A stretch of 64,000 bases of DNA from Candidatus Forterrea multitransposorum CG_2015-17_Forterrea_25_41. GTDB lineage: Archaea > Iainarchaeota > Iainarchaeia > Iainarchaeales > CSSED10-239. A program made the translations under genes and the position numbers. Location: positions 64,001 to 128,000 of the forward strand of contig CP045477.1 of NCBI GenBank assembly GCA_009392915.1, written 5' to 3'. Positions 51,619 to 53,525 of the stretch are shown here, piece after piece. The notes under the pieces were generated by a model, which was given only the letters and a program-made list of their open reading frames with translations, made no database searches and was not told where the DNA came from. Position 1 is the stretch's first letter. Each line of letters starts with the position of its first letter.

Positions 51619-51756
51619 TTAGTTGTATTAAATTTCATTTTTCTTTGAGGTTCAATTTCCGCCAGAAGCTTTGCTTTTTAATTTATGTTATTTTAATTTA
51701 TTTTTTATTACTTTTAGAAATAAATCTATTTAAATAGTTTATTTTTATATATATGT

Positions 51757-51772
51757 ATTATTCGCGAATAAT
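51757..51772. promoter_or_regulatory. perfect 16-bp palindrome upstream of the RNA ligase gene
   Basis: ATTATTCGCGAATAAT, just downstream of a TATA-like TTTTTATATATAT and 28 nt upstream of the GTG start at 51800. Confidence 0.4.
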
Positions 51773-51799
51773 GTTGGACAAAAATTTTGAGGTGGTTGT

Positions 51800-52474
51800 G
51801 TGTTTGATATCGCAGATTTTCCAAAATTAGAATCTCCCTTTATAAGAAAAACTATTAATGAAAAATATATAGTAACTTTTGAGATTAATCCTAAATATAA
51901 ATGGATTTTTAATAGAAACATTGTTTTAGCTTCAGAAAAGATAGATGGAACTAATGTTTCAATAATTATAAATAAAGGAAAAATAATTGATATATACAAT
52001 AGAAAAAATAAAATTGAAATATTAGCAAATAAAAAATATTTTAGATTTATAGATGGTATCAACTATGCCTTATATAAAGAATTATTTAGAACAAATAAAT
52101 CTATGCAAATATTTGGAGAATTAATTGGGCCAACAGTTAATGGAAATCCCTATAATGAAGTAAGAAACATATGGGTGCCTTTTTCTTACTTAAAAGAAAA
52201 ATGTGAATTTAAATTTTGGAATAAATTTTTAGAAGAAGAAATTGACGGTAAAGATTTAAGCGAAAAAGAAATATTTGAAAAAACATCAAATATTTTTAAA
52301 AATCTTTGGAGTCTTTATTATAGAAGAAAAACAGGCGAAAAGATATTTGCTGAAGGAATTGTATTTTATAATAAAGAAACTGGAGAGATGTGTAAACTAA
52401 GAAGAGATATGTTTGATTGGTATGAAGGAATTAGTCATGATTTTTTTAAAGCTAAAGCAAAAAAAGATCTATAA
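51800..52474 (+). CDS. Rnl2-family ATP-dependent RNA ligase, nucleotidyltransferase domain only
   Basis: Motif I SEKIDGTNVSIII (KxDGxN; compare T4 Rnl2 EKIHGTNFSLII), motif III FGELIGP, motif IV AEGIVF, motif V CKLRR. 224 aa. GTG start after a GAGGTGG SD. Confidence 0.7.
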   Translation: MFDIADFPKLESPFIRKTINEKYIVTFEINPKYKWIFNRNIVLASEKIDGTNVSIIINKGKIIDIYNRKNKIEILANKKYFRFIDGINYALYKELFRTNKSMQIFGELIGPTVNGNPYNEVRNIWVPFSYLKEKCEFKFWNKFLEEEIDGKDLSEKEIFEKTSNIFKNLWSLYYRRKTGEKIFAEGIVFYNKETGEMCKLRRDMFDWYEGISHDFFKAKAKKDL

Positions 52475-52500
52475 AATGTAATTTTTATAAACATATTTTA

Positions 52501-52555
52501 TATTACTCACATCTGTGTATTACTCACAATCTTTTTAAATGTTTTGAGTAATACA
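52501..52555. promoter_or_regulatory. three copies of a TATTACTCA(CA) motif (two direct, one inverted) upstream of fic
   Basis: TATTACTCACA at 52501-52511 and 52518-52528. TGAGTAATACA (the reverse complement of TGTATTACTCA) at 52545-52555. Located between the TATA-like TTTTTATAAA (52482-52491) and the ATG at 52561. Confidence 0.45.
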
Positions 52556-52560
52556 TATTT

Positions 52561-53496
52561 ATGAGTTATTTATCTAAACTTAAAAGAAATAATAAAACAT
52601 ATTATTATCTTGTAGAAAATATTCCTATATCTAAAGGTAGGCGAAAACAAATTAGAAAATATATAGGGACAATTAAACCTACAGATCAAAAATTATCTTT
52701 AGAACTATTAAAGTTTGAAAAAGAAATTACTTCTAAAAAAAAACAAATGCAAGGATTTACCTATTTAACTAAAGAAGAAATAAAAGAAGTAGATGAAATT
52801 AATTCAAATTTTTGGAAAAAATATAATAAATTATCAAAAACTGAGAGAGAAGAATTTTGGAATAATTTTATTGGAATTTTTGTTTTTAACACAAACTCAA
52901 TAGAAGGTTCAACTTTAACATTAAAGGAAGTTGAACTACTATTATCTGAAAATATATCTCCAAATAGACCTTTAGAAGATGTTTTAGAAGCAAAATCTGC
53001 AAAAAAAGCAATTAATTTTATTTTAAATTATAAATCTGATTTGTCAATAGATTTAATTACTAAAATTCATAAAATATATTTTAAAGAAAGCTTTCCAGAT
53101 ATAGCTGGTAAATTTAAAAGATTAAATAATAGAATAAAAGGATCAAAATTTGATACTACTCCAAAAGAACTAGTTTTAACTGATTTAAAAATACTTATAG
53201 ATAATTATAAAAAATTTAAAAAAGAATTACATCCAATAGAATTATCTGCTTGGTTGCATTGGTCTTTTGTAAAAATTCATCCTTTTCAAGATGGAAATGG
53301 AAGAATTTCAAGATTACTTATGAATTTTATACTTTTTAAAAATAAATATGCTTTAATAGATATTAAAACAAAAGAAAAACAAACATATTTTAATTCTCTT
53401 GAAAAATGTAATTATTTGAATAATGGAAAACCATTAGCTCAAAGATTAGTTAGAAGATTTAAAAAACAGTATAAAAATATATTTTCAAATTTATAG
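52561..53496 (+). CDS. Fic/Fido-domain protein (class II, internal inhibitory motif)
   Basis: Active-site loop HPFQDGNGRISR (HxFx[DE]GNGRxxR). Upstream TNSIEG matches the [ST]xxxE[GN] inhibitory helix motif. Confidence 0.88.
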   Translation: MSYLSKLKRNNKTYYYLVENIPISKGRRKQIRKYIGTIKPTDQKLSLELLKFEKEITSKKKQMQGFTYLTKEEIKEVDEINSNFWKKYNKLSKTEREEFWNNFIGIFVFNTNSIEGSTLTLKEVELLLSENISPNRPLEDVLEAKSAKKAINFILNYKSDLSIDLITKIHKIYFKESFPDIAGKFKRLNNRIKGSKFDTTPKELVLTDLKILIDNYKKFKKELHPIELSAWLHWSFVKIHPFQDGNGRISRLLMNFILFKNKYALIDIKTKEKQTYFNSLEKCNYLNNGKPLAQRLVRRFKKQYKNIFSNL

Positions 53497-53525
53497 TTTT
53501 ATTAATTTTTTTTTAAAAGAAAAAA

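Follow-up and report, generated by a model that had tools for sequence, protein, structure and literature searches.

A minimal RNA ligase and an adjacent Fic protein-modifying enzyme in a small, Iainarchaeum-like archaeal genome are not a functional pair

C12orf29/RLIG1 (human RNA ligase 1; Yasminevirus homolog, PDB 9c6l) belongs to a 'minimal' class of 5'-P/3'-OH RNA ligases, which consist of a single module of ~220-245 aa and have no additional RNA-binding domain. C12orf29 is published from bacteria, viruses and metazoans, not archaea, and its homologs can seal the halves of tRNA anticodon loops in vitro (PMC11071452). T4 Rnl2 carries a C-terminal helical domain, and in the Rnl5 enzymes (Naegleria gruberi NgrRnl and Deinococcus DraRnl) the accessory element is N-terminal, in NgrRnl a domain of ~150 aa, OB-like in the definition of Rnl5. 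Among Fic proteins, the class II enzymes FICD/HYPE, Bacteroides BT_2513 and Clostridium difficile CdFic combine an inhibitory (S/T)xxxE(G/N) helix, N-terminal of the core, with an HPFxDGNGR loop. The FIC protein CccR of Yersinia uses a DNA-binding domain to repress its own promoter (PMC9755527), and in the class II protein CbFic2 of Coxiella DNA binding switches the enzyme between AMPylation and deAMPylation (PMC10628234). SoFic acts in defence by abortive infection via AMPylation (PMC12249575).

A gene for an RNA ligase and a gene for a Fic protein were found side by side in the window, the whole 64-kb stretch of DNA analysed here. The window also carries ribosomal S24e and Rpo7, which identifies the organism as an archaeon; the genome is small and Iainarchaeum-like. 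The ligase and Fic genes are best explained as separately transcribed units, adjacent by happenstance in this lineage. The explanation that fits best, and that is favoured here with moderate confidence, is one of adjacent independent units in which the ligase stands alone and the Fic protein would be autorepressed through its N-terminal module, acting on boxes at its own promoter.

The ligase ORF (51800..52474, + strand) begins with GTG and encodes a stand-alone RNA-ligase nucleotidyltransferase of 224 aa. The protein passed the gathering threshold of PF09414 RNA_ligase (39 bits, cutoff 27), a model matched by all 33 aligned homologs. Its sequence contains SEKIDGTNVSIII, FGELIGP, AEGIVF and KLRR, and motifs I (KxDG), III, IV and V of the covalent nucleotidyltransferases are all intact. 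The catalytic lysine is K47 in EKIDGTN (codon 51938-51940, + strand), and the other motif residues are R68, E107 (FGELIG), E185 (AEGIVF) and K199/R201 (KLRR). In the alignment of 33 homologs K47, G50, E107, E185, G186, K199 and R201 were invariant, and D49 was conserved in at least 90%. The protein terminates 23 residues past motif V and the Rnl2 C-terminal domain is absent, as an earlier note on this DNA had stated; its wording 'NTase domain only' was correct in that respect but overlooked a conserved N-terminal extension of ~40 aa (DFPKLESPF...).

The name 'Rnl2-type', given in the same note, proved too specific. The ligase scored 19.7 bits against the NCBIfam Rnl2 model TIGR02307, far below the equivalog cutoff of 197.15, and its best structural neighbours were C12orf29/RLIG1 and Rnl5, the closest being viral C12orf29/RLIG1 and not Rnl2 proper; the solved structure nearest to its minimal fold is that of C12orf29. 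By sequence profile, T4 Rnl2 (and kinetoplastid REL1) matched best in the PDB, at E 7e-7 over motifs I-III. T4 Rnl2 has the same nucleotidyltransferase motif order, but the window ligase lacks the C-terminal helical domain and possesses the extra conserved DFPKLESPF segment at its N-terminus. PF09414 is common to the ligase and the Rnl5 enzymes, although sequence similarity to Rnl5 was marginal (E 0.27) and only ~40 residues precede motif I in the window ligase, compared with the ~150-aa domain of NgrRnl. With C12orf29/RLIG1 the ligase shares its single-module build and size, the KxDG motif, the arginine after motif I and the glutamates of motifs III and IV. The RLIG1 model PF17720 was matched by 6 of 33 ligase relatives (best 3e-8) and showed no match to the window ligase at E <=0.01, and 9c6l was not found when the ligase-family profile was searched against PDB sequences. 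The ligase is a member of a small, patchy family of ~220-aa stand-alone ATP-dependent RNA ligases, for which the 5'-P/3'-OH activity of the C12orf29/RLIG1 class is predicted. By analogy with its structural relatives, the enzyme would auto-adenylylate K47, then transfer AMP to a 5'-phosphate RNA end, which it would join to a 3'-OH; its substrate would most probably be broken tRNA or stem-loop RNA.

Upstream of the ligase, the best-conserved element in a MAFFT alignment of seven upstream regions was TATTTAAATA (51728..51737, + strand), the probable TATA box. The alignment also revealed TTGGAC (51774..51779, + strand), a short motif that the upstream regions of ligase orthologs share. A Shine-Dalgarno-like GAGGTGG (51789..51795, + strand) is located 4 nt before the GTG start, and its GGTG is kept in orthologs. 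The ligase would be expressed from this TATA box and Shine-Dalgarno sequence of its own, without a conserved operator.

The Fic ORF (52561..53496, + strand) encodes 311 aa and matched PF02661 (E 2e-19). The motif HxFx(D/E)GNGRxxR is present in the active-site loop HPFQDGNGRISR (residues 240-251; 53278-53313, + strand), and its H, F, D, G, N, G and R were invariant across 24 sequences. The inhibitory motif TNSIEG (residues 111-116; 52891-52908, + strand), of the form (S/T)xxxE(G/N), precedes the Fic core in the same polypeptide; its I, E and G were invariant and it aligned with TVAIEGN of FICD. These features are shared with FICD/HYPE, BT_2513 and CdFic (sequence E 1e-22 to 4e-18), and the protein has the fold of FICD-type Fic proteins. 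The earlier description of it as class II, with the inhibitory motif inside the protein, is upheld. It is an AMP-transferase of class II and of the FICD/BT_2513 type, auto-inhibited from within, with AMPylation as its predicted activity. A class I Fic/Doc toxin-antitoxin module was considered and rejected: the inhibitory motif is internal, and no conserved small antitoxin neighbour was found in 28 loci. A search of the 28 loci for a conserved neighbour of any kind, including a regulator gene, likewise yielded none. The gene had been regarded as accessory, which is not obviously the case, given more than 120 clusters with at least 53% full-length identity to the protein; all taxon names given for these were archaeal, mostly Diapherotrites.

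Three boxes were identified around the core promoter of the Fic gene. Box 1, TATTACTCA (GTATTACTCA in relatives), is located at 52501..52509 (+ strand) and is kept in loci L003, L081 and L167-L171. Box 2, GTATTACTCA (52517..52526, + strand; TATTACTCA copy 52518-52526), has its start 17 bp after box 1. The TATA box CTTTTTAAAT (52531..52540, + strand), found in all orthologous promoters, lies between boxes 2 and 3, and box 3 (52545..52554; GTATTACTCA on the minus strand, TGAGTAATAC on the + strand) follows it, ahead of the start codon. The triple repeat therefore consists of two direct copies (52501-52509 and 52518-52526) and one inverted copy (52545-52553). On both strands of the whole window TATTACTCA occurs only in these three copies, all inside 55 bp, an arrangement with a chance of ~2e-6 under uniform placement. 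The centre of the TATA box is ~25 nt upstream of the ATG, which, at the usual archaeal TATA-to-start distance, suggests a leaderless mRNA. A candidate fourth, degenerate box over the start codon (52562-52570) was rejected as coding sequence (M-S/T/G-Y-L) that, in L003 and L081, changes along with the codons.

The arrangement is maintained in Fic orthologs of 57-84% identity (L003, L081, L167-L170), which keep the order box, box, TATA box, box, ATG despite different spacers and upstream genes. At the nucleotide level, homology with the window sequence begins at box 1 in L081 and L167, 7 nt upstream of it in L003 and 22 nt upstream in L168. An exact repeat of at least 9 nt flanking the TATA box was present in 21 of 28 Fic-family promoters, compared with 4 of 131 other promoters in the same loci (Fisher p ~1e-16) and 2 of 63 promoters elsewhere in the window (~1e-12). 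The TATTACTCA repeat around the Fic promoter is genuine and conserved, and its operator-like character, proposed in the earlier note, is borne out by its restriction to three window copies, its position on either side of the TATA box and its retention in orthologs. Repeated sites kept across orthologs at conserved positions around a core promoter are the pattern of an autoregulated unit.

The candidate DNA-binding domain is the N-terminal module of the Fic protein (residues 1-65; 52561..52755, + strand). In a confident AF2 model it comprises antiparallel strands at residues 3-9, 12-24 and 27-36 followed by a long helix (42-64), and an HMM of the module, run on 166 loci, found it almost only on Fic proteins. 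FICD/HYPE, BT_2513 and CdFic all lack this three-stranded beta-sheet module, and FICD has a membrane anchor and TPR repeats in its place. No match to the module was found in Pfam at E up to 10 or in a profile search of the PDB, and hhalign against the arm-binding domain of lambda Int (residues 1-64) gave a probability of 0.4%. The module is thus without detectable sequence or profile similarity to the arm-type/AP2-like integrase beta-sheet domains; the AF2 model shows a three-stranded sheet plus helix.

The second strand of the module co-varied with the promoter boxes, a relation confounded by shared descent: the signature YYYLVEN was accompanied by TTACTCA boxes in 9 of 9 cases, YYYRxxS by ACGTCTACA boxes in 7 of 9 and KYYLxHS by TGTAG-type boxes in 5 of 5. 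Two Fic paralogs in the L169 genome have different boxes, each fitting its own N-terminal type. The boxes are conserved in sequence and position and co-vary with the N-terminal module, and autorepression of Fic by this domain is likely. The Fic protein, probably as a dimer, would bind the three boxes through the module and, once bound, would occlude TBP/TFB or RNA polymerase and so repress its own transcription. Autorepression of this kind would keep a potentially toxic enzyme low and self-limiting. CccR and CbFic2 resemble the window protein, on this reading, in the fusion of a Fic enzyme to a DNA-binding module, here a candidate one. Both, however, are bacterial and carry C-terminal DNA-binding domains (a helix-turn-helix in CbFic2), whereas the candidate module is N-terminal, is a beta-sheet of no recognised family and has putative sites that flank an archaeal TATA box. 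As a separate observation, L092 holds a Fic family member of the TACGTCTACA type.

Whether the two genes belong together was addressed by a survey of neighbourhoods, prompted by the earlier suggestion that they form a stress, defence or RNA-repair island. A functional two-gene cassette that moves as a unit is consistent with an 1851-bp block (51666..53516, + strand) which contains the ligase and Fic genes only and is 95.8% identical in nucleotide sequence to L171/L172 (blastn), where the flanking genes differ in content from those of the window; L171, at 3.3 kb, is too short to show whether a cassette moved or small insertions arose at both of its sides. In L003 the two orthologs are 1.3 kb apart, within 2.9 kb, with a ParE-type toxin pair between them, and this proximity, together with the L171/L172 block, makes weak linkage within a genus-level clade possible. 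Toxin-antitoxin or defence-type genes (AbiEii, PIN, MNT, Schlafen/AlbA_2, RadC) are also often found near members of the ligase family, and the Fic protein matches defence models in PADLOC, PDC-S04 (E 5e-34) and SoFic (E 1e-21). Against these observations, 74 of 80 ligase loci had no Fic within 6 kb, and in the six that did, the source lineage counted among them, order and orientation differed each time. No ligase was found in 32 Fic-seeded loci (28 of them, from metagenomes, with full-length Fic genes), and the same holds for four long-contig Fic orthologs. The closest other ligase orthologs (72-79% identical; L161, L163, L165, L002) had no Fic nearby, Fic orthologs of 82-84% identity (L081, L167, L168) had no ligase, and the pair was retained in near-identical strains only. 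When 697 neighbour ORFs from the 80 ligase loci were clustered, the largest cluster covered at most eight loci and none represented a conserved partner; recurrent neighbours were toxin-antitoxin/defence-type genes or reflected lineage synteny. The integration scars or compositional shift that might have been expected were likewise absent: the GC profile was flat across the region, the block edges in the window had no tRNA, integrase or repeat scar, and the neighbours were housekeeping genes. The island is unsupported because co-occurrence is not recurrent and because the self-contained promoter of the Fic gene travels with Fic alone. A two-gene cassette is consequently judged improbable, and the pairing is not worth pursuing as a system.

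Alternatives for the individual elements were weighed in the same way. The earlier note had presented a perfect 16-bp palindrome with a CGCG core, ATTATTCGCGAATAAT (51757..51772), as a symmetric promoter element of the ligase. Its place, after the TATA region and before the Shine-Dalgarno sequence, is typical of an archaeal repressor site, and it holds the only CGCG in 64 kb. Such lengths are nevertheless about as frequent as expected in the AT-rich window: first-order Markov simulation predicted 5.4 perfect palindromes of at least 16 bp and 1.2 with at least four G/C, and 7 and 2 were observed. The sequence ATTATTCGCGAATAAT occurs once in the window and is absent from all seven orthologous ligase upstream regions, and L171 has three substitutions at the site although the surroundings are ~96% identical. 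The site also varies in L161, L165, L163, L003 and L002, unlike the TATA box, TTGGAC and Shine-Dalgarno sequence. The palindrome is real but probably not functional, and a role as operator of the ligase gene is very improbable. The Fic boxes might, without involvement of the Fic protein, serve a separate host transcription factor or work in the RNA, as a hairpin that terminates or attenuates the upstream gene. The inverted arms, if transcribed, would pair as a hairpin of 11-13 bp (-18.8 kcal/mol, z -3.7), and the absence of detectable similarity between the module and known DNA-binding families agrees with either version. However, the hairpin is disfavoured because several clades (Fic promoters of L048, L095, L104, L113 and L169b) have direct instead of inverted repeats and cannot form it. 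The element moreover stays in place with respect to the ATG and TATA box of Fic, regardless of the upstream gene or that gene's orientation, the L169 paralogs match unlike boxes to their own N-terminal types, and the Fic gene has no regulator gene as a conserved neighbour; such a use of the boxes appears unlikely. A further proposal, compatible with autorepression, gives the Fic protein a mainly antiviral role, as a single-gene AMPylase of the abortive-infection type like SoFic/PDC-S04. It draws on the PADLOC matches, on the SoFic precedent and on the behaviour of Fic and its promoter as a relocating self-contained unit. The matches, though, span the generic Fic core alone (residues 83-297), no defence genes were found near Fic in the window, and identity within the family is 53-96% over many MAGs, most of them labelled Diapherotrites, a degree of conservation unlike that of typical defence genes with their fast turnover. 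An antiviral role is therefore considered rather doubtful.

Autorepression through the N-terminal module, the preferred reading, can tentatively be extended to the whole Fic family, which is abundant in Diapherotrites/Iainarchaeota and wider in environmental metagenomes. Each member might be a self-contained promoter-operator-enzyme unit in which a previously undescribed beta-sheet DNA-binding domain, almost confined to Fic proteins, reads boxes at its own TATA box, its specificity having diversified with the boxes into at least four protein/box types, with orthogonal paralogs in one genome. If so, binding to DNA might in addition control whether the enzyme AMPylates or deAMPylates, as in CbFic2, and the proteins of this family would be one-component sensor-regulators in genomes where transcription factors are very few. 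The family offers a testable archaeal enzyme that apparently carries its own operator and DNA-reading domain and for which natural specificity variants exist. It is a possible model for archaeal repression at the TATA box and for Fic toxicity held in check without an antitoxin, and a possible source of orthogonal repressor/operator pairs.

Members of the ligase family occur among archaea in DPANN, Thermoplasmatota and Asgard lineages and among bacteria in Patescibacteria, Chlamydiae and other groups, and the family extends the C12orf29/RLIG1 'minimal RNA ligase' architecture to DPANN archaea and ultrasmall Patescibacteria. Most members are ~200-265 aa in length. Among the longer ones no fusions to end-healing domains were found; their additional length consists of LAGLIDADG inteins, DUF4286 or unannotated extensions.

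The ligase ORF (51800-52474, plus strand) begins with a GTG start codon preceded by GAGGTGG, encodes 224 aa and scores 39 bits with Pfam RNA_ligase (PF09414), above the cutoff of 27. The second ORF (52561-53496, plus strand) begins with ATG, encodes 311 aa and matches Fic (PF02661) with an E value of 2e-19. All of the peptide motifs listed in the earlier note were found in the two ORFs, and its sequence observations are correct save for the palindrome upstream of the ligase, for which there is no evidence of function. The setting looks like an unremarkable stretch of a DPANN archaeal chromosome, with neighbouring genes for an FtsX/ABC transporter pair, a DUF2202 protein, a TraB-family protein, a large surface protein, PadR, ribosomal protein S24e, Rpo7, geranylgeranyl reductase and cysteine desulfurase. 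No compositional shift was seen, the GC profile being flat at about 0.19-0.29 across the ligase-Fic region. A genome record labelled Candidatus Iainarchaeum (L001) is near-identical here, with 99-100% protein identity for both genes.

A word-indexed search returned 809 ligase homologs at E ≤1e-3, nearly all of 200-245 aa. The family is small, since just 510 homologs at E ≤1e-3, and 80 at E ≤1e-30, came out of 1.84 billion cluster representatives searched exhaustively with a profile. Its members are scattered among DPANN archaea, Thermoplasmatota, Helarchaeota, Patescibacteria, Chlamydiae, Verrucomicrobia, Spirochaetes and others. Among 33 aligned sequences, residues K47, G50, T51 and N52 of motif I (K47-x-D-G-T-N52) are invariant and at least 90% have D49; P8-x-L10 within the N-terminal segment DFPKLESPF, N67-R68, motif III (F105-G-E107), motif IV (E185-G186) and motif V (K199 and R201) are also conserved. 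The Rnl2-type C-terminal domain is absent from the window protein, as the earlier note observed, and from every family member. The window ligase is not a member of the Rnl2 family proper: with the NCBIfam Rnl2 equivalog model it reaches 19.7 bits, the cutoff being 197. In the PDB the family profile matched T4 Rnl2 (E 7e-7) and NgrRnl (E 0.27), and Pfam RLIG1 is matched by 6 of the 33 members, the window protein having no match. On the basis of the missing domain, the low Rnl2 score and the RLIG1 matches, the window ligase is filed as a putative stand-alone minimal RNA ligase of the PF09414 superfamily, with an architecture nearest to C12orf29; it is a further member of the known minimal RNA ligases of the PF09414/RLIG1-like type. 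C12orf29 homologs seal tRNA anticodon-loop halves (5'-P/3'-OH) in vitro, and their structure has been termed a minimal RNA ligase fold (PMC11071452). Such sealing would be the best functional analogy for the window ligase. Three family members of 432-580 aa (P0249, P0261 and P0262) contain a LAGLIDADG homing-endonuclease intein, inserted directly behind motif I (profile position about 51-53) and adjoining the catalytic lysine.

The 16-bp perfect palindrome ATTATTCGCGAATAAT is present upstream of the ligase at 51757-51772, and its length is within chance. Under a first-order Markov model of the window, 5.4 perfect palindromes of at least 16 bp are expected and 7 were observed; for those with at least four G/C the figures are 1.2 and 2. 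When the upstream regions of seven ligase orthologs were aligned, three common elements emerged: a TATA-like sequence (TATTTAAATA, 51728-51737), TTGGAC (51774-51779) and a Shine-Dalgarno sequence. The site of the palindrome varies across the seven, and in the contig L171, with a ligase gene 95.6% identical, it reads ATTCTTAGCGAGTAAT, three substitutions with which the symmetry is gone. Given this variability and the loss of symmetry in L171, a role as a conserved operator is very unlikely for the palindrome. The TTGGAC element is placed between the TATA box and the Shine-Dalgarno sequence in L171 and in the ortholog loci L161 and L165, with TAGGAC in L002. The one peculiarity of the palindrome is its CGCG, found nowhere else in the 64-kb window among a total of 170 CG dinucleotides.

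A neighbourhood survey did not bear out a recurrent pairing of ligase and Fic: of 80 genome loci with the ligase, 6 had a Fic gene no more than 6 kb away. These comprise the source lineage, L003 and four loci with distant Fic genes that differ in position and orientation. In L003 the ligase is 68% and the Fic protein 81% identical, and the two genes are 1.3 kb apart in the order Fic, a ParE-type pair on the opposite strand, ligase. No Fic match was found near ligase orthologs of 72-79% identity, which are flanked by a HAD hydrolase and a type I restriction subunit (L161), RuBisCO-like and FKBP genes (L163), ResIII and transglutaminase (L165), or a DUF134 protein, a RelA/SpoT-like ORF identified by eye and short-chain dehydrogenases (L002). 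The ligase was found in none of 80 Fic-seeded metagenome loci, many of them short contigs, and was absent within 6 kb of Fic in four orthologous loci, L167-L170, whose contigs span 50 kb to 1.19 Mb. Linkage is favoured by one 1851-bp block (window 51666-53516, L171 842-2692), 95.8% identical in the Logan contigs L171 and L172, which holds exactly the ligase and Fic genes between flanks unlike those of the window. With contigs of just 3 kb, this is either a relocated two-gene unit or the product of small insertions on both sides. The adjacency of ligase and Fic is limited to one narrow lineage, and the stress, defence or RNA-repair island proposed in the earlier note is not supported, the two genes having separate distributions and separate promoters. 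The flanks in L171 and L172 comprise a 92-aa and 84-aa small-gene pair upstream and a 152-aa basic ORF downstream. The pair in L003 (3564-4219, minus strand) consists of a 125-aa ParE-type toxin and a 92-aa partner; relatives of the partner also occur in L045, L046, L090 and L103, close to a Fic or ligase gene.

ORFs within 3.5 kb of the ligase were clustered across the 80 genome loci, and no conserved neighbour was found, the largest cluster covering at most 8 loci. Recurrent clusters were AbiEii toxin (with a putative AbiEi partner), Schlafen/AlbA_2 ATPase, RadC, PIN, MNT-type nucleotidyltransferase, Fic and metallophosphoesterase. The ligase tends toward flexible regions rich in toxin-antitoxin genes, a setting that fits, without proving, a role in resealing cleaved RNA. 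The metallophosphoesterase, a 161-aa calcineurin-like protein, lies near the ligase in seven loci (L045, L047, L052, L056, L058, L062 and L064), mostly from Thermoplasmata-related genomes, and about 2 kb upstream of it in L056; it may serve RNA end healing alongside the ligase, or the association may just be lineage synteny.

The Fic gene is a class II Fic variant that combines an N-terminal module specific to Fic proteins with an operator that surrounds the TATA box and co-varies with the module, and this combination is the sole part of the locus deserving follow-up. The inhibitory motif TNSIEG (residues 111-116) and the active-site loop HPFQDGNGRISR (residues 240-251) are both nearly invariant in the family, in agreement with the class II assignment made earlier and with the published definition (PMC10628234). 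Fic does not look like a sporadic accessory gene: more than 120 clusters align at 53-96% identity over the full 310 aa, and the taxon names given by the sources are all archaeal, mostly Diapherotrites. Its neighbours differ at every locus examined. The PADLOC models matching the Fic core were PDC-S04, a candidate defence family (E 5e-34), and SoFic (E 1e-21). Tandem Fic paralogs, each with the N-terminal module, occur on the metagenome contigs L083 (189-1187 and 1786-2745) and L089 (213-1106 and 1310-2227).

The module, residues 1-65, falls outside every known Fic structure. AlphaFold2 (pLDDT 88.6) predicted three antiparallel strands forming a sheet (3-9, 12-24, 27-36), and after them a long helix (42-64). 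Searches with the module gave no match in Pfam or among PDB sequences, and hhalign showed no similarity to the lambda Int arm domain. Over 166 loci, a module HMM retrieved 46 Fic proteins, all but one at E <1e-9; the non-Fic matches were a 307-aa homolog without the Fic motif and, weakly, a small unrelated ORF.

Three repeat copies surround the Fic TATA box (CTTTTTAAAT, 52531-52540). Box 1 (52501-52509, plus strand) is a direct TATTACTCA copy followed by a 7-nt spacer, box 2 (GTATTACTCA, 52517-52526, plus strand) contains a direct copy from 52518, and box 3 (52545-52554) contains an inverted copy at 52545-52553, 6 nt before the ATG at 52561. The triple repeat is beyond chance, as these are the only three TATTACTCA copies of the window and all lie within 55 bp (probability about 2e-6 under uniform placement). 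The TATA box is centred about 25 nt from the ATG and a Shine-Dalgarno sequence is absent; going by the usual archaeal promoter geometry, the mRNA is probably leaderless. The box-box-TATA-box-ATG layout is kept, despite unrelated upstream genes, in orthologs of 84% (L168), 83% (L081), 82% (L167), 81% (L003), 61% (L169) and 57% (L170) amino-acid identity, and in L171 (97% nucleotide identity over the Fic gene); ortholog boxes read (G/T)TATTACTCA and spacers vary. Nucleotide homology to the window starts at box 1 in L081 and L167, and 7 nt and 22 nt upstream of it in L003 and L168, respectively.

In L082 (53% identity) the boxes read TGTTACTCA, and relatives at 28-40% identity have the same architecture with an altered box: TACGTCTACA / TGTAGACGTA, CC(C/T)TACA / TGTA(A/G)GG, TGTAGACACC, TGTAATGGTAA or TGTGCCCATA. 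Their repeats are mostly inverted around a ATTTATAAAT-type TATA box and direct in some loci. An exact repeat of at least 9 nt, whose arms lie at -32 to +2 and upstream of that, was present in 21 of 28 Fic-family promoters, against 4 of 131 other promoters of the same loci (Fisher p 1.5e-16) and 2 of 63 others in the window (p 1.1e-12). Box type goes with the strand-2 signature of the module: YYYLVEN occurs with TTACTCA (9/9), YYYRxxS with ACGTCTACA (7/9) and KYYLxHS with TGTAG(A/T/C)C (5/5). Two Fic paralogs in the single genome L169 each have the box type fitting their own module. Of the operator-like repeats claimed for both genes, the Fic triple repeat stands, being conserved and co-varying with the module; the ligase palindrome does not.

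The most economical reading is that the Fic protein would bind its own promoter through the candidate DNA-binding module and, once bound, repress it. The binding factor must accompany the Fic gene everywhere, and no other neighbour gene is constant; it must also have co-diversified with the boxes and differ between paralogs of one cell. The TATA box has boxes 1 and 2 directly upstream and is separated from the start site by box 3, and from such near-TATA positions archaeal repressors block recruitment of TBP/TFB or polymerase. The repeats might instead act at the RNA level, as their inverted arms would fold (-18.8 kcal/mol, z -3.7), but some Fic clades have direct instead of inverted repeats, and the repeats are conserved independently of the upstream gene. 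Autorepression by Fic would have a precedent in the DNA-binding Fic proteins already known, from which the window family differs in where its candidate domain lies and how it folds, in having an archaeal promoter context and in a specificity that has visibly diversified. Direct TGTAGCC repeats flank the TATA box of the second Fic paralog of L169 (9108-10061, 35% identity), and about 100 nt upstream of its start there are two TATTACACA copies resembling the boxes of the first paralog, which could reflect cross-regulation or a partly duplicated promoter.
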